A stretch of 64,000 nucleotides of DNA from Vulcanimicrobiota bacterium (lineage in GTDB: Bacteria > Vulcanimicrobiota > Xenobia > Xenobiales > JADMJV01), in contig JBFWNU010000006.1 in the NCBI GenBank assembly GCA_050250895.1, positions 279,513 to 343,512 of the forward strand, given 5' to 3'. This document shows, in pieces, positions 9,162 through 47,210 of the stretch (position 1 is the stretch's first letter; each line of letters starts with the position of its first letter). A program made the translations under genes and the position numbers. A model generated the notes under the pieces. The model was given only the letters and a program-made list of their open reading frames with translations. It did not search any database and had not been told where the DNA came from.

Positions 9162-9185
9162 TCAAAAGTTGGTCGTGAGATGAAC

Positions 9186-13953: not shown

Positions 13954-14480
13954 CAGGTCTCGTCTCGATAGCGCAGGCCGCGACGCTGCTGCTCGGCCAG
14001 GTAAGCTTTGCGAATGATCTCGCGCACTTCGAAAGGCTCGCGGACGTTGTTGAGCACCACCTCGGGCTTGCTGGTGTCCGAGCTGAGAATCTTGACGTCG
14101 CCGATCTTGAAGGCGCGCTCGCCGAGATTCTGGGTGACCTCGGTGTCTCGCACCCGCACCAGGTCGATCTCTTCGAGCTGGCGGCTAAAGACACCCCGGA
14201 AAATGCGCAAGCGCTGGCTGGTCAATTCATAGCGTGTGCCCATGGTGGCGTAAGGTTTGCCGCTCCACAAGACGCTCTCGTCGCCTGCGGTCTGGGCGGG
14301 GCCGACCGACTCCTGGTCTTCTTCTTCGAGCTGGGACAGCACGGCGAAGACCCCATCGGCCAGGGCTCCGACCACCGTCTGAAGCTGGGCGTGGGGAATG
14401 GCGTCCAGCTTGACGCCGCTTTCGTCAACGGAGCGGTAGAATTGGTCGGTGATCAGCTTGCGCACGGTTTCTTTCTGCAT
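13953..14480 (-). CDS. Bacterial PH domain protein
   Basis: YELTSQRLRIFRGVF..EEIDL.RVRD...GDV pattern. Confidence 0.8.
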   Translation of the reverse strand: MQKETVRKLITDQFYRSVDESGVKLDAIPHAQLQTVVGALADGVFAVLSQLEEEDQESVGPAQTAGDESVLWSGKPYATMGTRYELTSQRLRIFRGVFSRQLEEIDLVRVRDTEVTQNLGERAFKIGDVKILSSDTSKPEVVLNNVREPFEVREIIRKAYLAEQQRRGLRYRDET

Positions 14481-28698: not shown

Positions 28699-30330
28699 TT
28701 AGAGCCTGCGCTTGGCCACCTGGTGAGCAAGCCGCATCGGCACTGCCAGGGCCATGAGGATCAGGACCAGGCTATAGGGAAAGGCCGAAGAGAGCGCCGC
28801 CGCCTGGATCGGCTCGATACTGCCCTGGCTGACCAGAATGCCGGTGACGGTGGCGAGCAGGGCGCCCCACATCACCTTGGTGCTCAGGCGAGGCTCGAGA
28901 TCGCCTTCGGTGGTCATCATGGCGATGACGAAGGTGGCCGAGTCGGCCGAAGTGACCAGGAACGTAAACAGCAGACACAAGGATAGAGTCGAGGTCACCC
29001 CTGCCAGGGGCAAATGACCGAGCAACGCGAACAGCCCCACCGCCGGGTCGCCGTTGGGACCGCTCACCAGTTGACCGATGCCCTGGGTGGTGTTCATTTC
29101 ATACCACAGGCCCGTTCCACCGAAGACCGAGAACCAGGCCACCGTGAACAGAGTGGGCACCGCCAGCGAACCGAGAATCAGCTCTTTGATGGTCCGTCCG
29201 CGGGAGATACGCGCAATGAAAATGCCCACGAAGGGAGCCCAGGCGATCCACCAGGTAAAGTAAGTCAAGGTCCAATCGGCCATCCAATGTTCGTACTTCG
29301 GGGTGAAGGGCGCCACTCGAAAGCCCAGGGTGGGAAGGGCCGACAGATACTGTCCCAAAGAGTCGACGAATAGTTTGAGGATAAAGAGAGTGGGCCCGCA
29401 GAGAAAGACGAAAACCATCAGGGCCACGCACATGCCCATATTGACGTTGGAAAGAATCTGGATTCCCTTCTTGAGGCCGGTGGTGGCCGAGGCGATAAAA
29501 GCGATGGTCACCAGCACCAGAATGAGGGTGTAACCCATTCCGCTTTTGGCCGCCGTCCAGCCGTAGGCGTGGGCAAATCCGGCCGCCAACTGAAACGTGC
29601 CCATGCCGACCGAGGCGGCCACCCCGAAAATGATGGCCAGAGTGGCGGTCAGGTCGGCCACGAGCTTCAAGGCCTTATTGAGGGTGGGCGAGGCGAACAG
29701 GTCGACCACCGCCGAGGAGACCAGGTATTTCTTGCGCTTGCGAAAGCCGTAATAGGCGACGGCTACGGCGCAGAGTGTGTAGACCCCCCAGCCGTGCAGG
29801 CCCCAGTGAAAGAGGGTGATGCCCATGGCCTGGCGAGCCGCTTCGACCGTGGCCGGATTGCCTACCGGCGGGTGTAGAAAGTGGATGACCGGTTCGGCCC
29901 CGCCCCAAAACAGCAGGCCGACTCCCATGCCGGCCGAGAATAGCATGGAATACCAGGAGAGATCCGAGAATTCGGGTTCGTCCTCAGGGTCGCCCAGCAC
30001 CACATCGCCAAACCGCGAGAAGGCGAGATACATGAGATAGATGAGCGAGCCGGTGGCCAGCAGGATGAAGAACCAGCTCAAATTGCGGGTCACGAAGCTC
30101 TTGGCCTGGTCGGCGATGGTGAGCAAGCTGTCGCCCTGGATGACCGCCCAGATGGTAAAGAGAATGGTGAAGCCGACCGAGAGGAACATATTGGTGCTCA
30201 TCCGGTTGTGCTCTTCCGAACGGATGTCCTCGAGTTCGCGATCCTCGTCATGCACGAGTCGTTCCAGGACTTTGTCGCGGAAGTCGTTTTGTTTATTGGC
30301 TTTCTTGGTGCTTTTAGGGTCGGATGTCAA
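28699..30330 (-). CDS. BCCT family (betaine/carnitine/choline) transporter; start uncertain
   Basis: SMLFSAGMGVGL, FHWGLHGW, WWIAWAPFVG.FIARISRGRT, TSADS motifs. Confidence 0.93.
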   Translation of the reverse strand: MTSDPKSTKKANKQNDFRDKVLERLVHDEDRELEDIRSEEHNRMSTNMFLSVGFTILFTIWAVIQGDSLLTIADQAKSFVTRNLSWFFILLATGSLIYLMYLAFSRFGDVVLGDPEDEPEFSDLSWYSMLFSAGMGVGLLFWGGAEPVIHFLHPPVGNPATVEAARQAMGITLFHWGLHGWGVYTLCAVAVAYYGFRKRKKYLVSSAVVDLFASPTLNKALKLVADLTATLAIIFGVAASVGMGTFQLAAGFAHAYGWTAAKSGMGYTLILVLVTIAFIASATTGLKKGIQILSNVNMGMCVALMVFVFLCGPTLFILKLFVDSLGQYLSALPTLGFRVAPFTPKYEHWMADWTLTYFTWWIAWAPFVGIFIARISRGRTIKELILGSLAVPTLFTVAWFSVFGGTGLWYEMNTTQGIGQLVSGPNGDPAVGLFALLGHLPLAGVTSTLSLCLLFTFLVTSADSATFVIAMMTTEGDLEPRLSTKVMWGALLATVTGILVSQGSIEPIQAAALSSAFPYSLVLILMALAVPMRLAHQVAKRRL

Positions 30331-30507
30331 AGAAATAGCAGAATGGGCCTCTCTAAAGGGGATGGAACGTTCTTCCGCAACGGGATCGATTTTCCTTGGA
30401 TGTTTTAAAAAAAGGTCTGAGGGAAGGAGGAATTTGGCAGGGGGGCATAGGATTACGGCGATTCGGCCGCCACTGGCATGCCGGCGGCCCGGAGGTAGAA
30501 ACACATA

Positions 30508-34152
<3,645 letters not shown>

Positions 34153-34179
34153 CTCATCGGCAGTCCTCCGTCGCCAGCG

Positions 34180-34208
34180 AAGGCCCCGGATTTTTCCGGG
34201 GCCTTTTC
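34180..34208 (+). terminator. Intrinsic terminator after rpoC
   Basis: AAGGCCCCGGA-TTTT-TCCGGGGCCTT followed by TTCC. Confidence 0.8.
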
Positions 34209-34213
34209 CTGTT

Positions 34214-34445
34214 GGCGGCGGAGTTGCTCGTGGTAAAACCCAGCCGAAGCCTCGAAAGGCCAGGCACCTGGCGGCCTGGCTGGGGCCCAGCGCCGCCCCG
34301 TTGGGGTGGGCCGCTCACCATCGTAAACACCCCGCCCACTCGGACCCCGAGAAAGGTGCCCATGCGCCCGGCTTGAGAGGTTTTGTGGGCGCACCTCGGG
34401 GTTGGCTCGTCTCGGTCTGGTCTGGGACCTGCGCGAACCACCGCC
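34214..34445. ncRNA. Candidate structured ncRNA (~230 nt), family unknown
   Basis: Terminal stem 34214-34221/34438-34445; internal stems 34239-34245/34278-34284, 34345-34351/34395-34401, 34363-34369/34387-34393; hairpin 34249-34260 (UUCG loop on minus strand). Confidence 0.45.
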
Positions 34446-34453
34446 TGCAGCCC

Positions 34454-35551
34454 TCAGCTGTAGGGTATCTCGAGACAGCGCATGAGCAGTTCTACGGGCA
34501 ACGCGCTGGCCACTCGATGGTTGGCTCCGGTCATGTCCTCGGCTGCCAGCAGGGCGTTAAGGATGGCTTCTTCGGTGGCATCCAGGGCCGCTTCGTAGAG
34601 CGGGTTGACGAAGGCGTCACCCAGGATTCGCAGGCGGTACAACTTATGGCGGGGACGACGCGGAACCGTATTGGCGGTCGAGAAGGCGAGCACGATCTCG
34701 CCCGAACCGTGGGCCGCGTAAGAACCCATGCGGCCAATGCCCAGGGCTACTCGCTTGGCTACACGATTGAGTTGGTGGGGCAGCAAAGGGGCATCGGTGG
34801 CGGCCACGGCGATGATGCTGCCAGCGATTCCCGGCCGTCGCTGCAACCGGGGCATCATCTCTCCCAGGCGTCGTCCCACCGGAATACCATCCACCCGCAA
34901 CTCTTCTAGAGAGCCCCAGTTGGACTGCACCAGGACCCCGATGGTAAAGGCCCCTTCCTCCAGGGTGAGCACTCGCGACGAGGTGCCGATGCCGGCCTTG
35001 AGATCGCAGGTCATCATGCCGGTGCCGCCACCCACCGACCCTTCCTGCACCGGACCCGAGTGGGCCGCGGCGATAGCCTCGAAGACATGATGGCGACGCA
35101 CGTGATGGCCGGCGATGTCGTTGAGCCAGCTATCGTCGCACTCGCCCACCAGGGGAATGATGACGTCGTGTTCGCCCCCGATGCCGGGATAATGCTCGAC
35201 CATGTAGGCCACGATCGCCTCGGACACCGAGCCCACGCTCAGCGTGTTGGTCAGGGCGATGGGGGTCTCGATCAGGCCCCATTCGACCACCTGGGTGAGC
35301 CCCCCGACTTCGCCCGCCCCGTTAAGCACGAAGGCTCCGCCGTGGACCCGCTCGTTGAAGATGTTGCCGGCATTTGGCAAGATGGCGGTTACGCCCGTGC
35401 GAATCGGTCCCGTTCCGGCCTTGAGGCGACCTTCGCCTTCGATGATGGTGGAATGGCCGACCTGCACGCCGGCGACATCGGTAATGGCGTTATAGGCACC
35501 CGAGTGGTGGCGTCCGATTCTGATACCGAGATCACGCGCCCGTGGTCGCAA
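34454..35551 (-). CDS. DmpA/P1 (S58) family aminopeptidase
   Basis: NAITDV.GV.VGH, TGVTAI, ECDD, EGSVGGGTGM, G-S autocleavage site (AGSII), HGSGE. Confidence 0.93.
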   Translation of the reverse strand: MRPRARDLGIRIGRHHSGAYNAITDVAGVQVGHSTIIEGEGRLKAGTGPIRTGVTAILPNAGNIFNERVHGGAFVLNGAGEVGGLTQVVEWGLIETPIALTNTLSVGSVSEAIVAYMVEHYPGIGGEHDVIIPLVGECDDSWLNDIAGHHVRRHHVFEAIAAAHSGPVQEGSVGGGTGMMTCDLKAGIGTSSRVLTLEEGAFTIGVLVQSNWGSLEELRVDGIPVGRRLGEMMPRLQRRPGIAGSIIAVAATDAPLLPHQLNRVAKRVALGIGRMGSYAAHGSGEIVLAFSTANTVPRRPRHKLYRLRILGDAFVNPLYEAALDATEEAILNALLAAEDMTGANHRVASALPVELLMRCLEIPYS

Positions 35552-37532
35552 GATGTTGTTGTTCCCGTCTCTGGTTTTTCCAGCGTTTGATGGCCGGCGT
35601 GAGGATCTCTGCGACCAGTTCGGTGTAACTCAGGCCGGCCGCCCGCGCAATCACGCACAGATCCGAGAAGTTCGGCGTCAATCCCGGTAGCGGGTTGCAC
35701 TCGAGAAAATGCGGGTTGCCTTCGCCATCGCAGCGCAGGTCGATGCGGGCCACATCGCGACAGCCCAGGGCTCGAAAGGCCCCCTTGGCCACCTTTTCGA
35801 GTTGCCGAAATAGCTTGGGGGTCACCTCGGCCGGGACCTGAAAGGTCACGTTCTCGTTCTCGTCGAGCTTGTGTGAGAAGGCGTAGACGCGCTTGGTGTT
35901 GTTGGGCCCGAACAAGATTTCCATGGGGGGAAGCATGCGCAGTTTGCGCTGGCCCAGAATGCCGACGGTGAACTCGCGCCCGGGCAGATAGGTCTCGACC
36001 AGGGCCGGTTGGTGGTAGCGCGCCACCGACTCGATCACCGCCTCGCGCAACTGCTTTTCGTTTTCGACCAGGCAGTTCTCGAAGATACCCTTGCTGCTGC
36101 CCTCGGCCACCGGTTTGACGAAGAGAGGATAGCGAAGGTCGTTGGGTAGCTTTTCGCGCCCGTGATTCATGACCAGAAAATCGGGAGTGTGAAAGCCCGC
36201 CTGGCGCACCAGTCGCTTGGCCAGGGCTTTGTCGAGGGCCAGAGCCAGGGCGCCGGCGTCAGAGCCGGTGAAGGGGATGCCCATCAATTCGAGCAGCGCC
36301 GGCACCTGGGCCTCGCGATTGCGACCCTGGATGCCTTCGGCGATGTTGAAGACCACATCCACCCCCTCGAGGCGGGCCGGCAGTTCGGGTCCCGCTTCGA
36401 GGTCGATCGGTTCGTAGCCGTTAGCCCGGATCGCCTCGAGCAGCGCATGGATGGTGGTGGGCGAATCAAATTCGGCCTCGTGGTCCTGGTCTTCGGAGAC
36501 TTTACTCCGCTTGACGTTGTAGGTGAGTCCCACTCGGGTCGGCTGGGTCTTCGGTTGTTCCTTGATAATTTGCTGGCGATTGCATGCGCTTTTGACGATG
36601 CAGTCGAGCACCGAGCCCACGGTGGGCAGGCCCGCGGCGGCGGCGCACAGATAGATGGCCGCCCCGGGTTCGAGGCTGGGCAGAGCGTTGACCTCGATGA
36701 GAAAGGCTTCACCCCGCTCGTCGACCCGAAAGTCGACGCGGGCGAAATCTTTGACCTGCAACACCTCGACCGCCTTGCGGGTGGCCGCCACCAGTCTCTT
36801 GCGGGTGGCCGGGCTGACCTCGGCGGGGCAGGCTACCTCGACGTCATCGGGGCGATGCTGTTTGAGTTCGTAGTCGTAGATCGAGTGCTTTCGGGCCGGA
36901 CCCTTGAAGACGTAATGGGCCGGCTCCAGCACTCCTTTCTTGCTCAGATAAGGCACCGTGACGTCCCGCCCGCGGATGAACTCTTCGACCAGCACGCCCG
37001 AAGGGTATTCCTCGAGCATGGCCGTCACCACCGCCTCCAGGCGCTCGGGGGCTTCTACCACCGAATCCTGGGTGATACCCTTGGAGCTGCCTTCGAAGTT
37101 AGGCTTGACGATGACCGGAAAAGTCAGGTCCAGGTCTTTGAGTTCGCTCCCCCGCGACACGAACTTCCAGCCGGGAACTTTGATGCCGCGCTCTTTGAGG
37201 GCCAGTTTGGTCAGGTGTTTGTCGAGGGTGAGGGTGCAAACGTAGGCGTCCGAGCCCGTGAAAGCCAACCCCAGTTGCTCGAGCAAGGCGGGATAGAAGC
37301 CCTCGCGAAAACGCCCTCGACTGCCCTCGGCCGTGTTAAAGACCAGGTCGGGGCGAAGCGCCTCGAGGCGGGCCACCAGCGAGGGCAGGCTGGTAGAGGC
37401 TTCCACCAGAGTGACCTTGTGGCCCAGTTCGCATAGGGCGGCTCGCACCGCTTCTACGGTCTCGGGCGTGTCGAATTCGGCTTGCTCGGGGGTGAGACAG
37501 GTTTGCAGGTTATGAAGAAATGCGATTTTCAA
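35532..37532 (-). CDS. Tandem D-Ala-D-Ala ligase-like ATP-grasp protein (two fused units)
   Basis: Motifs EFD.P.T, VFN.AEG, FTGSD, DK, VKP..EGSSKGI, R.D.R, E.N.LP each occur twice. Confidence 0.9.
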   Translation of the reverse strand: MKIAFLHNLQTCLTPEQAEFDTPETVEAVRAALCELGHKVTLVEASTSLPSLVARLEALRPDLVFNTAEGSRGRFREGFYPALLEQLGLAFTGSDAYVCTLTLDKHLTKLALKERGIKVPGWKFVSRGSELKDLDLTFPVIVKPNFEGSSKGITQDSVVEAPERLEAVVTAMLEEYPSGVLVEEFIRGRDVTVPYLSKKGVLEPAHYVFKGPARKHSIYDYELKQHRPDDVEVACPAEVSPATRKRLVAATRKAVEVLQVKDFARVDFRVDERGEAFLIEVNALPSLEPGAAIYLCAAAAGLPTVGSVLDCIVKSACNRQQIIKEQPKTQPTRVGLTYNVKRSKVSEDQDHEAEFDSPTTIHALLEAIRANGYEPIDLEAGPELPARLEGVDVVFNIAEGIQGRNREAQVPALLELMGIPFTGSDAGALALALDKALAKRLVRQAGFHTPDFLVMNHGREKLPNDLRYPLFVKPVAEGSSKGIFENCLVENEKQLREAVIESVARYHQPALVETYLPGREFTVGILGQRKLRMLPPMEILFGPNNTKRVYAFSHKLDENENVTFQVPAEVTPKLFRQLEKVAKGAFRALGCRDVARIDLRCDGEGNPHFLECNPLPGLTPNFSDLCVIARAAGLSYTELVAEILTPAIKRWKNQRREQQHLATTGA

Positions 37533-37625
37533 GATTCCAACCTAAAGTTTGGTGAGTACGGCCGGCATTCGCTGTTGGCCTAAAGCATTCCCTGTGCAAT
37601 CGCCACAAAGGCAGAGGGTCGAAAA

Positions 37626-39122
37626 TTGGCGAAGGAGGCCCCGATGACCACCACAATGACTGCGGCTGAAATCATGCGCCCGGGTCATTTTGAACCCGAG
37701 CGCCATTTCTATCCCCGCGTGCTCAATGCCACTATTCATCCTATGGTGGCCTTCTTCATGCGGCTCTCTCCCGAGCGCCTGGTGAGCCGCTACTGCCACC
37801 TCAATCCGCGCGTAGACCCCCGCGCCCTGCGCGAGATTCTCTCCTATCGGCCCCGCTATTTTCGCTGGGCCGGGGGCGACCTGTTCAACGTCACCACGGC
37901 CGAAGGACAACAAGAGATGGTGCTCATCGAGACCAACTCTTGTCCTTCGGGTCAGAAGTCGATGCCTCTTCTGGCCGACCATCAGGAGATGGGTGGCTAT
38001 CAGACCGTGGTCGAGTCGGTGCTGGCCCCGCTCTTTCGGAAGGCCAAGAAAGCCAGAGAGCTCAAGGGTGTGCTGGCCGTCATCTTCGACAAGAACCCCA
38101 TGGGCAATTCGGGCTACGCCGCGGCCATGGCCGAGCACTTCAAAGAAAACGTCTACTTGACGCCGTTTCTCGCCAGCGACCCTGACCCCCCGGTGAGGGT
38201 CCGCGATCGCGCCCTCGAGGTTCGGGACCCGAGCGGGACCTGGTTGACCGTGCGGGCCGCTTTTCGCTACGTGACGCAGAAGCCGTGGGCGCGTATCCCT
38301 ATCGACTGTAAGACGTTTCTGGTCAACCCCATCCAGGCCTGTCTGGCCGGCGGTCGCAACAAAGCGGTCGCCGCCATGGCCTATGAGCTGCTCAATAGCG
38401 AGCTGGCGGGCACCGGCCTCGAGGTGCGCACCCCCGAGACCATCCGCGACGTCACCAAAGGCGAGATCCCGATGCTGGTGCGCAAGATGGGCGGCCACGC
38501 CGTGGTCAAGATCCCTTACAGCAATGCTGGTCAGGGCGTCTTTACCATCACCACCGAAGACGAACTCGATGCCTTCATGGCGGGCTCTTACGGCTATGAC
38601 CGCTTCATCGTGCAAAGCTTGATTGGCAACTATCTGTGGAGTTCGCAGGGCGCTCGCGGGCGGTTCTACCACGTAGGCATGCTGCCCAACAAAAACAATC
38701 AGATCTACGTGGCCGACCTGCGCATGATGGTGGCCGCCGGCGAAGAGGGTTTCATGCCCCTGGCCGTTTATGGTCGACGGGCCCGTTCGGCCTTGCTCGA
38801 CCGCCTGGATGGCTCGGTGAGTTCCTGGGATATGCTCGGCACCAACCTCTCCATCGCCAAAGGCGCCGACGCCTGGGATTCTGACACGGCCCGTCTGGTG
38901 CTGATGGACCGGCGCGACTTCAATACTTTGGGTCTGAGCCTCGATGACCTTCTCAAAGGTTATGTCCAGACCGTGTTGGGGGTGGTGGCCATCGACAAGA
39001 TGGCCCGCAATCTCACCACTCAGAAGGGCCGCTTTCGCATGAAGCTGTATCAGAAGCTCAACAATGATCCCAAGCTAATGGACGAGATCTGGCAAGCCAC
39101 ACCCAACGAACCCGAACGATGA
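37626..39122 (+). CDS. ATP-grasp-like ligase, probably circularly permuted
   Basis: GGD and IETNS near the N-terminus, then [20 protein letters not shown]. Confidence 0.7.
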
Positions 39123-40081
39123 AGAAGATTCGCTACCAGGCCATCGAGATCGAGAACTATCCTCAGGGTCAACGGACCGATTTCTGGCGGGGCCTGTATC
39201 AAGACGCCACCAGTTGCCCGGTCCGAGTGCCCTTTATCGTGGCCCGCGGAGCCCGCAACGGACCCGTGCTCGGCGTGACCGCCGCGGTGCATGGCAACGA
39301 ACTCAACGGCCTGCGCATCATTCAGCACCTGCTCGAAGAAGTCGACCTGGCTCGGCTGGCCGGCAGTCTGGTGTGCGTGCCGGTGGTCAACGTGCCCAGC
39401 TACAACGCCGGCACCCGGCTGTTTCCCGATGGCCTCGACCTAAACCATGTCTTTCCCGGCAAGTCGGAGGGCAGGCCGGCCGAACAGTACGCCCGGGCTT
39501 TTAGCGAGACGCTGCTGCCCTGTCTCGACTATCTGGTCGACCTGCACACCGCCAGCGACGGCCGGGTGAATACGATGTACGTGCGGGTCGACATGAAGGT
39601 CGAGGTGGCCCACCAGATGGCCGTAGACTTCAATCCCCAGATCATTTTGCACGGACGTTCGGGCGACGGCACCTTGCGCAGCGCGGCTCGCCGCCATGAC
39701 ATCCCGGCGGTCACCGTCGAAGCCGGCAATCCCAGCGTCATTCAGGGCCGCATGGTGTTTGAAGGCGAGACCGGAATTCGCAACATCATGATGGGCCTGG
39801 GCATGCTCGAAGGCAAGCCCAGCATCACCCGTGAGCCGGTGGTGTGCGAAGCCTCGCGCTGGTTGCGCACCACCAGCGGAGGCTTGCTCGAGACCCGCTT
39901 CAAACTGTTGGAGCGCGTAGTGAAGAGGCAGGTGTTGGCCGTGACCCGCGACCCCTTCGGCAAGATTCTGAAGGAATATCGTTGCCCGGCCGACGGCGTA
40001 GTCATCGGTATGGCGGCCAATCCGGCCGCCGCCTCGGGCACGCGCTATTGCCATCTGGGCACCATCGGCGAGGGGCTGTGA
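39119..40081 (+). CDS. Succinylglutamate desuccinylase/aspartoacylase (M14-like) family
   Basis: HGNE, DLN..FPG, DLHT, TVEAG; C-terminal biotinyl/lipoyl-like domain. Confidence 0.92.
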
Positions 40082-40908
40082 AGATCTGGCTGTATTCGCA
40101 CCTGGTGGATTCGCCAGGCAATCGATTGTTTTTCGACGAGGCCACCCGCCGGGGTCATGAAGTGGTCGAGGTTCGACCGGACCTCACCCACTGGCCTTTG
40201 AGCGGCTCGACCGAAGAGCGTCCCGACCTGGTTTTCACCCGCTCGGGAAGCTCGTCGCCCGCCAACGCTTTGCCGGGTCTCATCACCCTCGAGCAGGCCG
40301 GCCTCTTGTGCATCAATTCCAGTCAGAGTCTGCTCTTTAGTCGTGACAAAGCCATCAGCTACAGTCTGTTGGCCAGGGCCGGGGTGCCGGTGCCGCGCTC
40401 TGTCTATCTGGGCCGGGGTCCGGTGGGGGAGGCGGCCGCCCAGATTCCTGGCCCCCCCTGGATCGTGAAGCTGCCGGTAAGCACCAAAGGGCAGGGGATC
40501 GTGTTGGTCGAGAGCATGCGCAGTCTACGCTCGCTGGTGGATACTCTGCACGCCCTGGACCAGACCATGATTTTGCAAGAGTTCGTAGCCTCGGCCGCCG
40601 GTTGCGATACTCGGGTGCTGGTGCTGGGCGGGCAGGCGGTGGTGGCGGCCAAACGCCAGGCCGGCCAGGGCGACGAGTTTCGCTCGAACCTCTTTCTGGG
40701 AGGGCAGGCCACCGGTCTCGAGCTGAGTTCGCAGTGGCGCCTGGTGGCCGAGAAAGCGGCCGAGACCCTAGGGCTCGAGGTGGCCGGCGTCGATCTCCTG
40801 GAGGGTCCGGCCGGCCCGCTGGTGGTGGAAGTCAACGGCTCACCCGGCATGACGGCAGCTTCGGACATCGCGCCCAGGATCGTCAGCTATCTCGAAGGTC
40901 GTTGCTAG
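40078..40908 (+). CDS. RimK family alpha-L-glutamate ligase-like ATP-grasp
   Basis: GTG overlapping the previous stop; DK, VK...G.G, LQEFV, DTR, FRSNL, GVD, EVNGSPG. Confidence 0.9.
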   Translation: MKIWLYSHLVDSPGNRLFFDEATRRGHEVVEVRPDLTHWPLSGSTEERPDLVFTRSGSSSPANALPGLITLEQAGLLCINSSQSLLFSRDKAISYSLLARAGVPVPRSVYLGRGPVGEAAAQIPGPPWIVKLPVSTKGQGIVLVESMRSLRSLVDTLHALDQTMILQEFVASAAGCDTRVLVLGGQAVVAAKRQAGQGDEFRSNLFLGGQATGLELSSQWRLVAEKAAETLGLEVAGVDLLEGPAGPLVVEVNGSPGMTAASDIAPRIVSYLEGRC

Positions 40909-40985
40909 GGGCTGGCTCGGTCGGAGCTACCGGAGATTGTCTCTTCATGCCAGGATGAGCGCGGGGGGCCGGGGAACACAGCGGG

Positions 40986-42029
40986 GTGAAAATCGGGTTC
41001 ATGATCACCGATTTTGGAGTCAAAAAGGCGGTCCACACGACCGTCCGCATGGCTCGCGAGGCTAGCGCTCGCGGCCACGATGTCTGGTTTTTTGGACCCG
41101 GTGATTTTGCCTACCGGTCCGATGATACCCTCTGGATGCACGCCCGCCGCGCCCCTCGAGAGAACTACAAGTCGAATACCACTTACCTCTCCGACTTGAC
41201 TACTGCCCCCACCGAAGCCAACATCTGTGCGGCCGAACTCGACGTTGTCTTCTTGCGCGACAACCCGGCCAAATACAGCAAGGAGCAGAGTTGGGCCCGG
41301 CCCACCGGCACCACTTTCGGGCGAGCGGCTGTGCGCGAAGGGGCCGTGGTGCTCAACGACCCCGATGGCCTCATGCAGGCCAACAACAAGATGTATTTTC
41401 AGTTCTTTCCCGAGCAGGTTCGCCCCCGGACGCTGATCACCCGGGATCGAGAAGAGATCCGCGGCTTCGCCAAGGACCTTGAAGGCGACCTGATCCTCAA
41501 GCCGTTGCAGGGGTCGGGCGGGGAAGGCGTCTTTATCGTCAAGAAGGACGGCCACTACAACCTGAACCAGCTGGTCGACGCCTTGATCAAGGATGGCTAT
41601 GTCATTGCCCAAGAGTACCTGGTGGCGGCCGAGAAGGGCGACACCAGGCTGTTTATGATGAACGGGCGCCCGCTGCGGGTGAAGGGCCGTTATGCCGCCT
41701 TTCAGCGGGTGCGCCAGGGCGACGATATTCGCAGCAACATGCACGCCGGGGGCACGGTGGAGAAGGCCGAGGTGACTCCGGTCATGCTGGACATCTGCGA
41801 GATGGTGCGGCCAAAACTGGTCAAAGACGGTATGTTCCTGGTTGGCCTCGACATCGTGGGTGACAAGCTGATGGAGATCAACGTCTTTTGCCCGGGCGGC
41901 CTGGCTGGCATGGAGAAACTCGAGGGGGTCAACTTTTCGGCGGCAGTGATCGAGGCCCTAGAACGCAAGGCGCGCTATGCCGCCTACTATAATCGAGCCT
42001 TCGACAACGCTTCGATGGCCACGTTATGA
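40986..42029 (+). CDS. Glutathione synthetase-like ATP-grasp
   Basis: FLRDNP, NDP.GL...NK, KPL.G.GGEGVF, QEYL, GDTR, RSN..GG, GLD, EINV..PGG. Confidence 0.88.
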   Translation: MKIGFMITDFGVKKAVHTTVRMAREASARGHDVWFFGPGDFAYRSDDTLWMHARRAPRENYKSNTTYLSDLTTAPTEANICAAELDVVFLRDNPAKYSKEQSWARPTGTTFGRAAVREGAVVLNDPDGLMQANNKMYFQFFPEQVRPRTLITRDREEIRGFAKDLEGDLILKPLQGSGGEGVFIVKKDGHYNLNQLVDALIKDGYVIAQEYLVAAEKGDTRLFMMNGRPLRVKGRYAAFQRVRQGDDIRSNMHAGGTVEKAEVTPVMLDICEMVRPKLVKDGMFLVGLDIVGDKLMEINVFCPGGLAGMEKLEGVNFSAAVIEALERKARYAAYYNRAFDNASMATL

Positions 42030-42547
42030 GGCTTCGCTGGCTGCTGCTGGCGCTGTTGCTGCTGCCGGCCTGGGCCCTCGACGATCAGCAGAAAGCTCTG
42101 CTGGCCGGAGCCCGCAGTTGTCTGGGGGACGTCTATGACTCTGGTTACTACACCGGGGGGCCGCCACCCAAGGGCCGCGGGGCATGTCCCGAGGTGGTCT
42201 ACTACGCCTATCTGAAGATTGGTGTCGACCTGCAGGCAGAGGTCGACCGCGACCTGCGCGCCAACCCCTCGCTCTATCCCAGTCGTCGCGACCGCAACAT
42301 CGACTACCGCTGGTGTCCCAACTTGATAGTCTGGTTCTCGCGCCATACCAAGACGCTGCCGCGCGATAGCGATTGGCGGGCCGGAGATGTGGTGTTCTTC
42401 AATCTGTTGGGCGATGGGGTAGCCGATCACATCGGCATCGTCTCGGACAAACCGGGCCACGTCATCCATAACCTGGGCCCTCGCTGCGTCGAGGACCGGG
42501 CGCTCGAGCGATTGCGGATCGTCGGGCACTTCAGAATGCCTCGCTAA
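42026..42547 (+). CDS. DUF1287 family secreted protein (NlpC/P60-like)
   Basis: Signal peptide; YD.GY, G.C.EV, DLQ, D.NID.R..PNL, GD.V, HIGIV, HN.G. Confidence 0.85.
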   Translation: MRLRWLLLALLLLPAWALDDQQKALLAGARSCLGDVYDSGYYTGGPPPKGRGACPEVVYYAYLKIGVDLQAEVDRDLRANPSLYPSRRDRNIDYRWCPNLIVWFSRHTKTLPRDSDWRAGDVVFFNLLGDGVADHIGIVSDKPGHVIHNLGPRCVEDRALERLRIVGHFRMPR

Positions 42548-44474
42548 GCACCAGCGCCGGCAGACTAATGCCGCTACGCAACAACTCCAGGCGTTCTTGG
42601 GCCTGAGGCTCCGAGAGCACGCGGGGCTTGAGGGGAGCTCTCACCAGCACCCTGCGCCACTGGAGTTCTTTGATGAGGGGAATGTGGTGGCGCGCGATCT
42701 TGCCCACGAATAGCGGCTCGAGGTCTCCTCCTTTGCGCAAGAAGTCGAGTAAAGAGACCAGTCCGCGCAGGTAGATGGCATCCTTGGTCAGGCCTCCGCC
42801 TCGATAGACGCGAGTGACGATGTCGAACAGGCCGGCGGCCGGAAGGGTATATTGGTCGCGCAAGCGATTGAAGGTCTCGCTGAAGGTCGCTCCGGATAAC
42901 AGCAGATCGACGGCCAGCACCCGCACCGCCAGCAGCCGGATACGCGGGCGGCTCAAAGGTCCTGAGAGAAATTCCGACAGCACGGCGATGCCCTCTTGAA
43001 AGGCCAGATAATCAGCCAGCCCCAGCGCCAGTTGCCGCAGCGGCTGAGCCCGGCCGTTGTAGTAGGTGAGCAGATGAGTGCCCACCTCGTGGTGTAGTAA
43101 CGGCTGAACGCGCGAGGCCGCGACCTGGGCCCGACTGCCGATCAACAGATGGCCACGGTCGCAGAGGATGCCGTTACCCAGGTCTTCGCGCACTTCGACC
43201 CGGGGGGTGAAGCCTTCCCACTGTTGGCGGTAACATTCGATCTCGTCGCGCGCCAACTGGGCGAACTCTTCGGCCTCGACCAGCTTGGGATCGGCTTCGC
43301 GGGCCCGCTGGGGCAGCACCTCGAGCACCTGGCGGGCCACCGCTCTGAGCTCGTCGTCGACCTTGCCATAGAGCGAGAGCGAGCCATAGAGGAAGTGCGG
43401 GGTGCGGCGCCGACCCAGCATGGTGATCTTGGTGTCGAGTTGATGCTGCTTTTCTAGAAAAAGGCGTGCCAAGGTCGGTTCCTCCACCCGGTCGACCGGC
43501 ACCGCAAAGAGTTGGCGCTTGAGCTGAGTGGGATCGTGCGGAAAGGGACGATAGAGGAATTCAGGGTCCTGGTTATAGCCTGCCTTCTTGAAGCGCAGCC
43601 AGGCTTGATGGGTGTTGATGGGAGTGGCCTGGAGCAGGAACGAGAACGAGTTCGAAACGTCCTCGAGAGCCTGGTCCACCTGCCAAACCATCTTGACCAT
43701 GGCCCGCGGGCCCAGCGTCTGGTAATTGGGGGGAGCCAGCGGAGTCGAGGTCGTGACGAACTCATACAGGGTTTGGCGCAGCACTCGGCCCAGCTTGCGG
43801 CGCAAGCTGCGCAAGATGATGGGATAGGGTTTTCCGGCGGTGGATTGATAGAAGGGCGAGATCTCGAGTCCCAGACGCAGACAGTGATTCTCTTCGCACC
43901 ATTGGCGCCCTAGAATCCGGGGGCGGTCGCTGGGCCACGGTTTCTGGTCGGTCTGAGTCACGATGGCGGGCACCGCCACTTTGAGTCGGCGCAATCGTCC
44001 GCTCATGGTTTCAGCCAGGCGCTCGACGGTGGGGTGGCCGCCCGTGTGGATGGTGAATTGTGCAATGGTGTAAGGCTCGAGCAAAGGCGGTCCTGCCCAC
44101 AGCTCGAGCAGAAGGAAGGCTCCGAAGGCGGGCTGCTGAGCGCTGACCACCGTCTCGACCAGGGGACGTGCATCTTCCCCCGGACCGACCTCGAGGCAGG
44201 AGGCTTCACTGGTCAAGAGAGCGCGGGTTCCCTCATCGGGTAGGGTGGGGGCTCGATATAAGCAGAGAAAGGGCAGCCGGCGGTCGACCTTGAGCCGAGT
44301 CTTTTCGCCCCAGCGAATGCGAAGAGTCTCGCCTGTGCGTAGCTCCTGGACGAGTTCTTCCAGGTCGATGGTGGTTTTCTCGCTGTGACTCAAGGCTCGA
44401 CCCTTGGTCGCGGTCCGAGCAAACTCCTGGCCGGAGGGGGGCAGGGCAGCCGGGTCTGGCGCGGAACTTGCCAA
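42531..44474 (-). CDS. QEGLA-motif (DUF1704, MATCAP-like) zinc carboxypeptidase; start uncertain
   Basis: HEVGTH, QEGIA, RVYRGGG, TKDAIYLRG, GK motifs. Confidence 0.88.
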   Translation of the reverse strand: MASSAPDPAALPPSGQEFARTATKGRALSHSEKTTIDLEELVQELRTGETLRIRWGEKTRLKVDRRLPFLCLYRAPTLPDEGTRALLTSEASCLEVGPGEDARPLVETVVSAQQPAFGAFLLLELWAGPPLLEPYTIAQFTIHTGGHPTVERLAETMSGRLRRLKVAVPAIVTQTDQKPWPSDRPRILGRQWCEENHCLRLGLEISPFYQSTAGKPYPIILRSLRRKLGRVLRQTLYEFVTTSTPLAPPNYQTLGPRAMVKMVWQVDQALEDVSNSFSFLLQATPINTHQAWLRFKKAGYNQDPEFLYRPFPHDPTQLKRQLFAVPVDRVEEPTLARLFLEKQHQLDTKITMLGRRRTPHFLYGSLSLYGKVDDELRAVARQVLEVLPQRAREADPKLVEAEEFAQLARDEIECYRQQWEGFTPRVEVREDLGNGILCDRGHLLIGSRAQVAASRVQPLLHHEVGTHLLTYYNGRAQPLRQLALGLADYLAFQEGIAVLSEFLSGPLSRPRIRLLAVRVLAVDLLLSGATFSETFNRLRDQYTLPAAGLFDIVTRVYRGGGLTKDAIYLRGLVSLLDFLRKGGDLEPLFVGKIARHHIPLIKELQWRRVLVRAPLKPRVLSEPQAQERLELLRSGISLPALVLSEAF

Positions 44475-44476
44475 AG

Positions 44477-45541
44477 ATGGTCAGGACGTGGCTCGACCAG
44501 CTGTTGCTCGGTCGGCTCTCCGATGGGCAGCGGTGGGTCTGGATCGGGGTGCTGCTGTTACTCATCTTGAGCGCGCCGCTGCTGGATCTGCTCGGGGACC
44601 CTCACTTTCACCTGAATCTCTATCCCTTGCCCATTATCCTGGCGGTCTTTCTCTTTCGCGAGCGAGGACTGTTAATGGTGGGCGTGATGATGGGAGTCTA
44701 CAGCCTGGTGCAGTTTCACCGCTCTACCGGCTCGGCGGCGATGATGGTCAATAACTTTTTCGAGTTGCTCGTGCTCTCTCTGGTGGGCGTGGTTTGTCAC
44801 GGCCTGGTCAAGAGCTATCGTCGCCTCTACCGGCGTGAAAGCGAGCTAGCGGCGGCCCGCCAGGAAGTCTTGATGACCCTGACCCACGAGCTGCGAAGCC
44901 CGCTCTTTGCGGCTCAGGGCACTATTGAGTCGCTATTGCGCGGTTTCGAGCGGATGAGTCCTGAACAGTTGCGCCAACAATTGCAGGCGGCCGGAGTGGC
45001 CATCACCCTGGTCAACCGCGAGGTCGAGGGCATCACCCAGCTGTTTCGGGTCGAATCGGGCAAGCTCAGGGTCCACCCCCAACCCTTGCAGCTCGAGGAG
45101 GTGTTCGAGGGCGTGCGGTCGCGTCATCCGGAGGTCTCTCATCCGGCCCACCGGTTGGTGTTCGCGGGCGGAGAACTCCAACTACGGGCCGACCGTCTAC
45201 TGTTGACCCAGGCTCTCGACAACCTGGTTACCAACGCTTTTCGCCACGCTCCCGGCGGGCGGGTCGAGGTGGCGGCGACGGTGACCGAGCAGAAAGTGAT
45301 CATCGTGATCCAGGATGAAGGGCCCGGGATCGCCAACAAAGACCGGCAGCGAATCTTCGAGAGATACGAGCGGGGTGAGGGCGAAACGCCCGGATTCGGC
45401 ATCGGCCTCTATTTGGCCCGGGAGTATCTCTGCGCTCAGGGTGGCGAGCTGACTCTTGAATCGAGCCCTCGCGGAGCCCGATTCGTGGCCAGCCTACCTC
45501 TGGAGGAGTTGCATGGGGATCATCCGAGTGGTGATAGCTGA
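44477..45541 (+). CDS. Membrane sensor histidine kinase
   Basis: TM region; THELRSPL H-box, NLVTNA, DEGPG, GIGL. Confidence 0.93.
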   Translation: MVRTWLDQLLLGRLSDGQRWVWIGVLLLLILSAPLLDLLGDPHFHLNLYPLPIILAVFLFRERGLLMVGVMMGVYSLVQFHRSTGSAAMMVNNFFELLVLSLVGVVCHGLVKSYRRLYRRESELAAARQEVLMTLTHELRSPLFAAQGTIESLLRGFERMSPEQLRQQLQAAGVAITLVNREVEGITQLFRVESGKLRVHPQPLQLEEVFEGVRSRHPEVSHPAHRLVFAGGELQLRADRLLLTQALDNLVTNAFRHAPGGRVEVAATVTEQKVIIVIQDEGPGIANKDRQRIFERYERGEGETPGFGIGLYLAREYLCAQGGELTLESSPRGARFVASLPLEELHGDHPSGDS

Positions 45542-46184
45542 TGACCATCATCTAGTCCGCCAGATGATGGTAAATACTCTTTCCACTACCGACGGGCTCG
45601 AAGTGGTGGCCGAGGCTTCCAACGGCACCGAGGCATTAGAAGCATGCCGAAAGTTTCGTCCGCAGGTGCTGGTGCTGGATCTCAAGATGCCCGACATGTC
45701 GGGGGTCGAAGTCACCCGCCGCGTCCAGAGCCTGCTGCCCGAGATGGGCGTCCTGATTCTGACGGCTGTCGAAGAGGAAGGACCCTTGTTCGAGTCGCTG
45801 GCTGCCGGGGCCCGCGGCTACCTACTCAAGGATGCCTCGGTGGATGAGGTGGTGGGAGCCATTCGCACGGTGGCCTCGGGGCGGGCCGTGCTGCATCCCC
45901 GCAGTACTCTGAGTCTGCTCAACGAGTTTCAACGGTCTCGCATGACCAACACGCGCAAGACCGATCAGAGCTTTGCCTCGACGCTCACCCGACTCACTCC
46001 GCGTGAGCGTGAGGTTCTTCGCTTGATCGGACAGGGGTTTTCCAATCGAGAGATCGGGCGCCAGCTCGTCATCAGCGAGAAAACCGCCAAGACTCACGTG
46101 GCCAATCTGCTGCGCCGGATCGGAGTCAAGGACCGGGTGGCCGCAGCGATTTTTGCCGTCAAAGCGGGCCTCTGCGAGCCCTGA
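45513..46184 (+). CDS. NarL/LuxR family response regulator
   Basis: GGAGGAG SD; ADDH, LDLKMP, GYLLK; LTPREREVL...SNREI HTH. Confidence 0.95.
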   Translation: MGIIRVVIADDHHLVRQMMVNTLSTTDGLEVVAEASNGTEALEACRKFRPQVLVLDLKMPDMSGVEVTRRVQSLLPEMGVLILTAVEEEGPLFESLAAGARGYLLKDASVDEVVGAIRTVASGRAVLHPRSTLSLLNEFQRSRMTNTRKTDQSFASTLTRLTPREREVLRLIGQGFSNREIGRQLVISEKTAKTHVANLLRRIGVKDRVAAAIFAVKAGLCEP

Positions 46185-46192
46185 AAATGAAG

Positions 46193-46218
46193 AAGCCCCT
46201 CGATTTGGCGAGAGGCTT
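46193..46218. terminator. Terminator hairpin between convergent genes
   Basis: AAGCCCCTCG-ATTTGG-CGAGAGGCTT; T-rich tail on the minus strand. Confidence 0.6.
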
Positions 46219-46238
46219 GTCGGCTCGAATGACCGGAT

Positions 46239-46409
46239 TCAGGCGGCTTGCCCCCTGGCTCGCATCCGCTCTAGCGTGCGCAGGGCCTTGTCTGAAAGGT
46301 ATCCTTTGTCGTCGTAAGTCTCCCAAATGGACTGGAGAATTTCGTTGTCGGGAAAAAGGTCGTCCACTTCGGAAAGTAACTCGTCGACATAATCGCCTGA
46401 ATGTCTCAT
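46239..46409 (-). CDS. Small acidic hypothetical protein (56 aa)
   Basis: AGGGAGG SD; MRHSGDYVDELLSEVDDLFPDNEILQSIWETYDDKGYLSDKALRTLERMRARGQAA; terminator downstream. Confidence 0.7.
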   Translation of the reverse strand: MRHSGDYVDELLSEVDDLFPDNEILQSIWETYDDKGYLSDKALRTLERMRARGQAA

Positions 46410-46439
46410 CTCGGCGCCCTCCCTTTTTATGGTATTAAC

Positions 46440-46507
46440 AGTCTAGTAGCGGTACTCCTGGAGTGCCATACTCCAAATGGATTAGGCTGACTACTCCGAT
46501 CGAATGA
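46440..46507 (-). promoter_or_regulatory. Promoter with repeated NarL-type operator half-sites
   Basis: TACTCC at 46453, 46469, 46492, each with an imperfect inverted partner; minus-strand TAGACT -10 at 46445-46440. Confidence 0.55.
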
Positions 46508-46520
46508 TTTGTTAAAATCT

Positions 46521-47210
46521 CTAGGATTTGTAGGCGCTGCCTCGGTTTGCTTTGTGATAAGCCGCCACTTCGCGGGCTACCACCAGCCAGAGATAAAAAC
46601 CGCAAGCGTAGCCGATGACCTGCCGCAAATAGGGAACGGGCAGCATCCAGCCCAGCACCCCTACCACAGGAATGAGCAGCAGTAACCAGGCAAAGCCGAA
46701 ATATTCACCAGGGTCGGCAGTGACGAACTCGAAGATGTCGCGGAAGCGAAAGCCCCCTGGAATGTCGCCACTCTCGGCGAAGCAGGCCAGGGCGATCGGC
46801 ATGAGCATCACGATGAGCGCCCACAGGGCCAGCGCCAACAGGCCCACAATGCCCACCAGGATCTCGCCGAACAAGCCGTGTTGCATGGTGCCCTTGGCCA
46901 GGGCGCTCTGGGTGCCGTAGATGTAGCCGAAGCTCAGCATCGTGATGGCTCCTGGAAGGCAGGCCAAAAGAGCATAGCCGGCCATCACCACGAAACCACC
47001 CAGGCCCCGAAACAGATGGCCCGTGAACTCGTCCGAACTCCATCCTGGCAGAGTCCCGTCGTCACTACCATCCAGTCCTCGCTCGATGAGCAGCTGAATG
47101 TAACCGAGGGGGGCGAAAAATACGATGGGGATGATGCTAAACAGCGTCCCAAGTGCGATTTTCTTGCCCGCTTCGCTGTCTCGCAACGGGGATTTGAAAT
47201 CGATGGCCAT
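46521..47210 (-). CDS. DUF4013-like membrane protein
   Basis: IP.....GY, LP.W, G..G pattern with about five TM helices. Confidence 0.75.
   Translation of the reverse strand: MAIDFKSPLRDSEAGKKIALGTLFSIIPIVFFAPLGYIQLLIERGLDGSDDGTLPGWSSDEFTGHLFRGLGGFVVMAGYALLACLPGAITMLSFGYIYGTQSALAKGTMQHGLFGEILVGIVGLLALALWALIVMLMPIALACFAESGDIPGGFRFRDIFEFVTADPGEYFGFAWLLLLIPVVGVLGWMLPVPYLRQVIGYACGFYLWLVVAREVAAYHKANRGSAYKS

Follow-up and report, generated by a model that had tools for sequence, protein, structure and literature searches.

The 64,000-nt stretch of DNA analysed here, referred to as the window, comes from a Vulcanimicrobiota bacterium (GenBank assembly GCA_050250895.1, contig JBFWNU010000006.1) and contains, at positions 34,454 to 44,474, a cluster of eight genes predicted to encode ATP-grasp ligases, peptidases and a DUF1287 protein. 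Judging from gene neighbourhoods, this cluster is a lineage-specific merger of three ligase-plus-hydrolase modules, not one conserved eight-gene unit. Module 1 comprises a tandem Ddl-like ligase and an S58 aminopeptidase. Module 2 is a trio of a circularly permuted ATP-grasp ligase, an AstE/AspA-type deacylase and a RimK-like ligase. Module 3 comprises a GshB-like ligase and a long-form MATCAP carboxypeptidase. We give an even chance to the reading that the modules synthesize and turn over small cytoplasmic peptide-like compounds, such as acidic peptides or acyl-amino acids. The gene assignments are based on a list of open reading frames (ORFs) with their translations and on Pfam and NCBIfam profile scans. 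A first-pass annotation of the window had proposed the same eight genes, all of which were recovered at the same positions with concordant Pfam and NCBIfam matches.

The modules seem to be linked. In one relative (G013, locus L011), the Ddl-like, S58, permuted-ligase, AstE-like, RimK-like and GshB-like genes form a single operon (6916-14299), all five junctions of which are 4-nt overlaps, and in a second (G001) the genes have the same divergent layout as in the window. Of 41 relatives, 10 had the permuted ligase, and these were also the 10 with the long MATCAP. Seven of them had the tandem Ddl-like ligase, which was not found in any of the other 31 genomes. In a survey of 201 genomes from 78 genera of the phylum, eight carried the permuted ligase, nine MATCAP and seven the tandem Ddl-like ligase; all three modules were confined to genera g1 and g3, except for one MATCAP in g15. 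A Polyangia genome (G050) carries seven of the eight families within ∼30 kb, at 34-67% identity to the window proteins. The Ddl, S58 and AstE genes form an operon there, RimK and MATCAP are a divergent pair, and a permuted ligase and a GshB-like gene complete the set. This recurrent linkage is a direct observation, as are the domain content and the modularity.

The modules are nevertheless separable, and the claim of the first-pass annotation that the eight genes form one system did not survive the neighbourhood survey. Three relatives (G003, G007 and G015) carry the Ddl gene and the trio on separate contigs, the S58 gene being next to Ddl in G003 and G015. Outside the lineage, MATCAP was found in one of five trio-bearing genomes and the permuted ligase in one of five genomes with the tandem Ddl-like gene. 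The distribution of the DUF1287 gene, described below, is also different.

In module 1, the tandem Ddl-like protein scored above the cut-off of a subfamily model (NF002378, 333 bits vs 243) but below that of every equivalog model (e.g., NF011169, 255 vs 404). In 20 homologs, the ATP-grasp Lys, Asp, Glu-x-Asn and EGSSKG positions are retained in the two halves, and each half shows a conserved motif of its own (AEFD or AEYD). The halves align to DdlA only from residue ∼83-89 on, so the N-domains of both appear to be shortened. A housekeeping Ddl identity was rejected on the basis of the failed equivalogs, the two modules with shortened N-domains and the presence of a separate Ddl in the genome. 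The sequence data suggest that the tandem Ddl/S58 module is mis-annotated as an ordinary D-Ala-D-Ala ligase.

The family is large. Among 8000 sequences scored, 3876 relatives of 366-1166 aa were found, the best 120 listed being 52-70% identical to the window protein, and the tandem Ddl/S58 pair had matches in at least 662 species genomes. Of 82 loci fetched after an alignment-based scan, we retained the 80 with a strong match and counted S58 genes by tblastn. In 28 of the 80 loci, the S58 gene starts no more than ∼240 nt from the end of Ddl, and in a further 15 it starts within 1 kb downstream (43 in total). It is elsewhere in the locus in 13 more (56 anywhere in the locus) and absent from 19; the remaining five leave no room downstream. 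These best 80 loci (L105-L184) are almost all from Myxococcota, Bdellovibrionota, Bradymonadia, Oligoflexia and Bacteriovoracia. Myxococcota, Bdellovibrionota and allied groups are largely predatory, and a link to a prey-digesting lifestyle is conceivable. Archangium and Hyalangium strains are among the carriers of the Ddl/S58 pair. Nothing about function could be read from the neighbours of the myxobacterial genes (HemB, an RDD protein and an ABC ATPase).

The hydrolase of module 1 belongs to the Peptidase S58 (DmpA/BapA) family. It aligned to PDB entry 2drh, a Pyrococcus 'D-aminopeptidase', with 340 bits, and also matched BapA (3n2w) and DmpA (1b65). Its G243-S244 aligns with the N-S position of BapA; this Gly-Ser position is conserved, and we take it to be the Gly/Asn-Ser self-processing site. 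A second S58 paralog, 52% identical, occurs outside the window (G000:C3:632712-633773) with one in-frame TGA in the match, which could reflect a pseudogene, a sequencing error or recoding.

In module 2, the permuted ligase (498-aa ORF) matched no Pfam or NCBIfam model. A scan of this protein and 24 family members at E up to 10 returned no meaningful Pfam family, including PF08886, the eukaryotic glutathione synthetase and CP_ATPgrasp families; the best chance-level match was RimK (E 0.018, in two members). We therefore rely on a structural model built from a 24-homolog alignment, with a predicted local distance difference test score (pLDDT) of 85 and a predicted template modelling score of 0.89. 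Foldseek placed 3k1t first, followed by eukaryotic glutathione synthetases, 3n6x, glutathionylspermidine synthetase, YgiC/YjfC and Cp1B. A second, Foldseek-independent fold search gave 3k1t with Z 16.6 (330 residues, root-mean-square deviation (RMSD) 4.1) and ArgX with Z 13.6. Permuted enzymes align to model residues ∼21-464, whereas ordinary ATP-grasps align only to 148-457, and E102-x-N104 of the N-terminal hairpin is invariant in 24 sequences, as is K295. The alignment spans and the invariant E102-x-N104 indicate that the Mg-binding strands have moved to the front of the protein. According to the model, the label of circularly permuted ATP-grasp, which the first-pass annotation had used, thus holds.

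Homologs of the permuted ligase number at least 3668 proteins at E 0.001 among 8000 candidates scored, the best 120 listed being 55-77% identical, and confirmed matches were obtained in at least 582 species genomes, out of the first 600 pattern hits. One look-alike cluster listed in an atlas search has 85 members, 86% of them from Eukaryota and most commonly Mucoromycota. The trio is richest in Saprospiraceae and Lewinellaceae, and its loci from the species-genome scan all belong to metagenome-assembled genomes. Neighbours were counted in 52 of the 98 non-duplicate loci, namely those extending 4 kb or more to either side of the ligase; of the others, five had no called ligase ORF and the remainder were too short. 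A member of the AstE cluster lay within 4 kb of the permuted ligase in 37 of the 52 loci and one of the RimK/GshB-like cluster in 33; 29 loci had both. The ORF caller and single-linkage clustering may have made these counts too low. The pairings named in the first-pass annotation are thus real and conserved, as is that of the GshB-like ligase with MATCAP, seen in five relatives and two fusions. Loci of the Lewinellaceae/Phaeodactylibacter type contain the permuted ligase with neither AstE nor RimK within 4 kb. An MscS-type channel gene was found within the same distance in 10 of the 52 loci, and polyamine genes (arginine decarboxylase, agmatinase, deoxyhypusine-synthase-like) near the ligase in seven. 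In L055, the MscS-type gene (3436-4314) is 3' of the permuted ligase.

The other two proteins of the trio belong to established families. The AstE-like protein is a member of PF24827 (111.8 bits vs a cut-off of 25) with visible HGNE...H motifs. It could not be assigned a named activity: DoeB, the best NCBIfam model, scored 73.5 vs 402.7, and AstE 16.5 vs 305.65. The RimK-like protein exceeded the cut-off of the RimK family model (TIGR00768, 157 bits vs 143). True RimK was tried as an identity and rejected, as NF007764 scored 142 vs 331 and ribosomal protein S6 of the genome lacks a C-terminal Glu-Glu. In locus L015 (G009:C356, 8384-13768), an operon of the Ddl, S58, permuted-ligase and RimK genes, in this order, lacks an AstE-like gene between the latter two, so in that relative the deacylase is either dispensable or replaced.

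In module 3, the GshB-like ligase passed the cut-off of the PRK12458 subfamily model (NF009110, 446 bits vs 408). Both glutathione synthase equivalogs were under their cut-offs (TIGR01380, 209 vs 299; NF003573, 221 vs 272) and no PF04262 or PF04107 gshA was found in the genome, and we rejected glutathione synthase GshB as its identity. Forty-eight longer relatives of this protein were found, of which 45 are fused to an FGase domain (PF05013) and two to MATCAP; one of the 48 looks like an unrelated chimera. The FGase fusions (P0246-P0290) are ∼625-aa proteins with an N-terminal FGase domain and a PRK12458-type GshB-like ligase, labelled in the sources as either 'glutathione synthase' or 'N-formylglutamate amidohydrolase'. 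From its domain content, such a fusion looks like a single-chain make-and-break enzyme.

The MATCAP protein is a member of PF08014 (287.6 bits vs 27) and scored slightly under the cut-off of TIGR02421 (335.4 vs 338.65). It carries the motifs HEVGTH and QEGIA, which we take to be the HExxxH and QEG(L/I)A zinc motifs of MATCAP. Nine loci were fetched, comprising eight relatives and a short paralog in the genome of the window. In five of the relatives (G003, G005, G007, G011 and G015), the GshB-like and MATCAP genes are convergent neighbours; in three, MATCAP occurs without the GshB-like gene. The short paralog (G000:C1:2440136-2441191, L193) is outside the window, has a 396-aa frame that is 35% identical and lacks the FGase-like N-domain; no homolog of the cluster proteins was found in the 20 kb around it.

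The long form has an extra N-terminal domain of ∼260 aa that matched no Pfam family. In a model with a pLDDT of 77, built from a shallow alignment of nine orthologs, the fold of this domain is closest to the FGase 2q7s (Z 12.8, 177 residues, RMSD 3.2), followed by poly-γ-glutamate hydrolases and M14 carboxypeptidases (Z 10-11). Among the nine orthologs, none of the His, Glu and Asp residues that precede D267 is invariant. The modelled domain is therefore probably a non-catalytic binding module rather than a second active site. Arg65, Arg222, Arg225 and Tyr209 are invariant and are candidates for a carboxylate-binding site.

The DUF1287 gene is translationally coupled to the GshB-like gene in the window. 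Its product has a weak NlpC/P60 match besides PF06940 and an N-terminus, MRLRWLLLALLLLPAWA, that is signal-peptide-like as judged by eye. The gene occurs in 15 of the 41 relatives (six of six in g2, five of five in g4 and three of eight in g3), is absent from G001 and is missing from the GshB/MATCAP pairs of the relatives. As its distribution differs from that of the ligase modules and its product looks exported, DUF1287 is probably a passenger.

Considered across the genome, the sequence evidence makes ordinary glutathione, cell-wall Ddl and RimK/S6 roles unlikely. A separate, better-scoring canonical Ddl is encoded on contig C2 (234 bits). Neither gshA family, PF04262 or PF04107, was found in this 99.6%-complete genome, and its only two GSH-S_ATP genes are both in the cluster. 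S6 ends in ...SMFVRTN, with no acidic Glu-Glu tail. For the cluster enzymes, every equivalog-level NCBIfam model was under its cut-off. A PF08886 profile search of the genome gave no match, but the control also matched in no genome. These data bear out the earlier view that the cluster does not serve ordinary glutathione or cell-wall synthesis.

The closest structure to the permuted ligase, 3k1t, was deposited as a putative ATP-grasp-type γ-glutamylcysteine synthetase of Methylobacillus flagellatus. Given this fold match, the permuted ligase may take part in a glutathione-like, two-step chemistry. The cluster resembles the GshA/GshB pair, including 3k1t/PF08886 and the eukaryotic permuted synthetase, in its two sequential ATP-dependent ligases and predicted acidic, tripeptide-like product. 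The permuted ligase is nearest 3k1t, and its partner ligases have GSH-S_ATP or RimK domains. The cluster differs from that pair in that the 24 family members lack a PF08886 match, the synthase equivalogs fail, a dedicated hydrolase is encoded nearby and no conventional gshA was found in the genome.

The first-pass annotation had offered two readings: a reversible amino-acid tagging system, or small-peptide synthesis and turnover independent of non-ribosomal peptide synthetases. The second fits better than tagging, given the small-molecule relatives of the enzymes and an S6 without an acidic tail. We favour small-molecule synthesis and turnover because most parts have characterised relatives (Ddl, GshB, glutathione and glutathionylspermidine (Gsp) synthetases, DmpA/BapA, AstE/AspA and FGase) that act on small molecules. 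Cp1B and the YgiC/YjfC peptide-spermidine ligases are likewise small-molecule enzymes (PMC12568646). The chemistry is placed in the cytoplasm because the enzymes other than DUF1287 lack signal peptides and either need ATP or work on soluble products.

In the mechanism that we propose, each module would combine one or more ATP-grasp amide ligases with a hydrolase able to undo the same type of bond. The tandem Ddl-like ligase of module 1 would join two or three small amino acids, possibly D- or β-type, and the DmpA/BapA-type aminopeptidase would strip residues at the N-terminal end. In module 2, the permuted ligase and then the RimK-like ligase would act in the manner of GshA and then GshB, yielding an acidic, amide-linked compound, e.g., an acyl- or glutamyl-amino acid, that the AstE/AspA-type deacylase would cleave. 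In module 3, the GshB-like ligase would add a residue onto a free carboxylate and the MATCAP-type carboxypeptidase would take it off, assisted by the FGase-like, probably non-catalytic, binding domain. The modules would be co-regulated, probably via the adjacent two-component system, and would convert free amino acids, chiefly glutamate, into short peptides and back, e.g., during osmotic shifts. Substrates, step order and physiological role are drawn by analogy with related enzymes throughout this scheme.

Glutamate recurs among those enzymes, namely RimK, GshA/GshB, AstE, FGase and poly-γ-glutamate hydrolase. MATCAP-family TMCPs deglutamylate tubulin, removing C-terminal residues that include glutamates (PMC10499314). 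Osmotic adaptation is perhaps the role of the cluster, by analogy with two other systems. In Photobacterium damselae, the adjacent genes A0J47_RS17020 and RS17025, annotated as 'GshB' and a 'QEGLA motif protein', are up 38-fold and 27.5-fold at 1% NaCl (low salt; PMC10308900). In Pseudomonas, a RimK-like/peptidase Rlo system is tied to hypo-osmotic stress (Lormand et al. 2025, PMC12239564). Osmotic-type neighbours comprise the MscS genes in 10 of the 52 permuted-ligase loci, a BCCT transporter gene in the window and a cation-chloride cotransporter gene in the Polyangia cluster. A more specific version, which we consider distinctly unlikely, is that the cluster is an amino-acid polymerisation buffer for osmotic adaptation, holding peptides at low and free residues at high osmolarity. 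When osmolarity falls, the five ATP-grasp domains would condense glutamate, and perhaps alanine or polyamines, into less osmotically active peptides or acyl-amino acids. When it rises, the three exopeptidase-type hydrolases would free the amino acids, with a membrane-embedded histidine kinase controlling the switch.

Several observations weigh against small-molecule synthesis and turnover by linked modules. The product and substrate assignments of all three modules rest on family resemblance. RimK and MATCAP relatives are best known for action on protein tails. The shared distribution in the phylum may amount to about one event and is no statistical proof, since g1 and g3 are kin, and outside the lineage co-occurrence is limited to the single genome in five noted above for each comparison. 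Neither partner was found within 4 kb of the permuted ligase in 11 of the 52 loci. Osmotic-type neighbours are present in a minority of loci, and the Photobacterium 'GshB' is a putative one, named by annotation. Finally, signal peptides, membrane segments and several catalytic motifs were assigned by eye.

The best-surviving alternative, which we nonetheless hold to be unlikely, is a writer and eraser of protein tails, a bacterial counterpart of the tubulin code. In it, the RimK-like, GshB-like and perhaps permuted ligases would extend a protein C-terminus, the AstE/M14-like and MATCAP enzymes would trim it, and the Ddl/S58 pair would modify either the N-terminal side or a linked peptide. RimK glutamylates the tail of S6, and arrangements of RimK-like and MATCAP genes recur, as in the divergent pair of the Polyangia locus. 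Removal of C-terminal tubulin residues by MATCAP/TMCP, described above, is a further parallel (PMC10499314). The three superfamilies of the tubulin code (TTL/TTLL ligases, CCP M14 carboxypeptidases and MATCAP/TMCP) are also found side by side in the cluster, the MATCAP match to PF08014 being unequivocal (E 1.8e-85). By contrast, the Pfam matches to TTL are borderline, none of the stretches passing alone, and the partners of bacterial MATCAP are GshB-like ligases and an FGase-like domain. The cluster has no tubulin-like or acidic-tailed substrate gene, its proteins have no terminal acidic run, S6 has no acidic tail, and no carrier gene or small ORF fits the 111-, 77- and 301-bp gaps. Moreover, the Ddl, GshB-like, permuted, S58, AstE and FGase-like parts all have small-molecule enzymes as their closest characterised relatives.

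Salvage or remodelling of cell-wall peptides, in which stem peptides, possibly from prey bacteria, are recycled or edited, is very unlikely. The actors would be the Ddl-like ligase, a D-aminopeptidase, an M14-like amidase (cf. MpaA), a carboxypeptidase and the exported, NlpC/P60-like DUF1287. The Ddl-like ligase does score above its subfamily cut-off, but the housekeeping Ddl sits elsewhere, and the halves of the tandem protein have shortened N-domains and their own AEFD/AEYD motif. Known S58 relatives are D- or β-aminopeptidases, but no mur, mpl, ampG, opp or racemase gene was found among the 22 ORFs scanned with Pfam around the cluster (24.2-50.9 kb of the window). DUF1287 looks exported and is weakly NlpC/P60-like, but does not co-travel with the ligases. 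The best 80 tandem Ddl loci are almost all from the largely predatory groups named above, but a look-alike cluster of the permuted ligase is dominated by eukaryotes, and such organisms lack peptidoglycan.

A secreted natural product made without a non-ribosomal peptide synthetase (an antimetabolite di- or tripeptide, a protease inhibitor or a siderophore-like compound, with the hydrolases for self-protection or maturation) is likewise highly improbable. The bacilysin and rhizocticin ligases BacD (3vmm) and RizA (4wd3) and the fungal E-64 ATP-grasp Cp1B are among the fold matches of the permuted ligase. Nevertheless, the Pfam-scanned ORFs include no exporter, tailoring oxygenase, methyltransferase or resistance gene, the families are unusually conserved for secondary metabolism (52-60% identity across phyla), and a dedicated hydrolase per ligase points to turnover, not export.

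That the three modules are functionally unrelated neighbours, brought side by side by chance rearrangement, is very doubtful: they are apart in most other lineages, the GshB/MATCAP pair is on another contig than the trio in five relatives, and the Ddl/S58 unit of the window is divergent from the rest and not co-transcribed with it, but the six-gene operon with 4-nt overlaps, a layout that varies among G000, G001, G009 and G013 with the modules joined every time, the narrow distribution common to all three and the independent regrouping in the Polyangia genome all argue for a link.

Small-molecule synthesis and turnover also has precedents in which a ligase is paired with a hydrolase. GspSA of E. 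coli, like the cluster, couples a permuted-type ligase to a hydrolase that reverses its reaction, and the folds of GspSA and YgiC/YjfC match the model of the permuted ligase with Z 12.5-12.6. Polyamine genes near the permuted ligase in seven of 52 loci are a further likeness. The differences are that the hydrolase of GspSA is a fused CHAP amidase, whereas that of the cluster is a separate AstE-type zinc enzyme, that there is no family membership at the sequence level and that the window has no polyamine genes. The Pseudomonas RimK/RimB and RloABC systems likewise combine a RimK-like ATP-grasp with a peptidase that cleaves glutamate-rich sequences (Lormand et al. 2025). They differ in that no retropepsin or transglutaminase-like membrane partner is encoded among the 22 ORFs, that the hydrolases of the cluster are of the AstE, MATCAP and S58 types, and that S6 lacks an acidic tail; sequence comparison did not assign the cluster to those systems.

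Animal metabolism of N-acetylaspartylglutamate and β-citrylglutamate provides an analogy alone. There, RIMKLA and RIMKLB make an N-acyl-dipeptide-like acidic solute, and aspartoacylase, of the AstE/AspA family, deacylates a related N-acyl amino acid. The cluster has no NAT8L-like acetyltransferase, and its permuted ligase has no counterpart in that pathway. The idea of ATP-grasp ligases beside diverse peptidases is reportedly in print: Iyer, Abhiman, Burroughs and Aravind are said to have linked, in Mol Biosyst in 2009, RimK-like, GshB-like and permuted ATP-grasps with AstE/AspA, FGase, DmpA-like and DUF1704 peptidases, and to have predicted new peptide metabolites and tags. A literature search turned up no biochemical test of those predictions.

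What the present analysis adds is the widespread tandem Ddl/S58 module, which appears to be mis-annotated and for which we do not claim absence from print, and the operons that join it to the other modules. It also adds the FGase-like domain in the long form of MATCAP, the fusions of GshB-like ligases to FGase and to MATCAP, and evidence from the whole genome that speaks against canonical roles. The cluster brings together three enzyme modules that are large, strongly conserved and without a known product. The permuted family has at least 3668 proteins in at least 582 species genomes, yet no Pfam or NCBIfam model, and bacterial relatives of human MATCAP are usually named for an indirect phenotype, 'flavohemoglobin expression-modulating'. 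The merged operons, at 6-10 kb of DNA, offer a practical entry to de-orphaning the three modules together. If the osmotic link is true, the modules and the Pseudomonas Rlo/Rim systems would share a common physiology; a polymerisation buffer would be a new fast, reversible control of internal solute count, alongside transport and mechanosensitive channels. If the enzymes act on protein tails, the cluster would be an ancestor-like bacterial version of the tubulin code.

The features of the locus are listed in the table.

Table. Features of the ligase/hydrolase cluster and its downstream flank, in window coordinates
Feature	Position	Strand	Evidence	Assignment
S58/DmpA-BapA-type self-processing aminopeptidase, 365 aa	34454..35551	-	PF03576 E 4e-114	module 1 hydrolase
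Tandem Ddl-like ligase, 666 aa	35532..37532	-	two Dala_Dala_lig_C stretches	module 1 ligase
Divergent intergenic region, 111 bp	37533..37643	.	AGGAGG before ATG 37644	separates the two operons
Circularly permuted ATP-grasp ligase, unnamed family (P0001)	37644..39122, ORF from 37626	+		module 2, first gene
AstE/AspA-type zinc deacylase, 320 aa	39119..40081	+	PF24827 E 4e-32	module 2 hydrolase
RimK-family ATP-grasp ligase, 276 aa from GTG 40078	40078..40908	+	PF08443 E 1.8e-35	module 2 second ligase
GshB-like ATP-grasp ligase, PRK12458 subfamily, 347 aa	40986..42029	+	NF009110 446 bits	module 3 ligase
DUF1287 protein, 173 aa, signal-peptide-like N-terminus	42026..42547	+	PF06940 E 2.2e-33	probable passenger
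Long-form MATCAP/QEGLA zinc carboxypeptidase, 647 aa	42531..44474	-	PF08014 E 1.8e-85	module 3 hydrolase
MATCAP domain of the 647-aa protein	aa 294-632 = 42579-43595	-
FGase-like N-terminal domain of the 647-aa MATCAP	aa ~56-244 = 43743-44309	-
Histidine kinase	44468-45541	+	HisKA/HATPase_c	candidate regulator of cluster
LuxR-type response regulator	ORF 45456-46184	+	Response_reg/GerE	candidate regulator of cluster

The region encodes five ATP-grasp domains, two in the Ddl-like ligase and one each in the permuted, RimK-like and GshB-like ligases. The gene overlaps reported in the first-pass annotation are found in the sequence. The Ddl and S58 genes overlap by 20 nt, with no other in-frame start; the permuted-ligase/AstE and GshB/DUF1287 junctions are ATGA overlaps, and the AstE/RimK junction is a GTGA overlap. 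The convergent DUF1287 and MATCAP genes overlap by 17 nt, and 77 nt separate the RimK-like from the GshB-like gene. The most likely start of the RimK-like protein is GTG 40078, instead of that of a 354-aa ORF, and that of the permuted ligase is ATG 37644, with AGGAGG ahead.

In keeping with the earlier report of no precursor peptide, no small carrier or precursor gene was accepted in the cluster gaps of 111, 77 and 301 bp; the ORFs inside the 301-bp gap (34153-34453) are Arg/Pro/Gly-rich and resemble non-coding or antisense frames. No cluster protein has an acidic C-terminal run. No consensus promoter was seen in the 111-bp divergent region; the promoter and terminator counts of the scan were at or below the shuffled expectation. 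Rfam returned nothing at E up to 1 over 33800-46600, which includes this region. In seven related loci, the sole Rfam match was a thiamine pyrophosphate (TPP) riboswitch (76.6 bits; L005, 13669-13780, + strand) directly 3' of the GshB-like gene in a Pirellulaceae trio operon, and this riboswitch probably controls the next gene, not the trio.

Downstream of the cluster, the histidine kinase has a hydrophobic N-terminus, as judged by eye. In loci L011, L014 and L021 of relatives, the ligase operon has a homolog of the LuxR-type regulator (68-70% identity) at its side, and the two-component system is therefore a candidate regulator of the cluster. Upstream are the genes of a BCCT transporter (28699-30504, - strand) and rpoC (30508-34152, + strand). 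The latter encodes a β' subunit of 1214 aa and is the only rpoC found in the genome. As its upstream neighbour is the BCCT gene, on the opposite strand, and not rpoB, the rpoB-rpoC linkage seems to be broken here.

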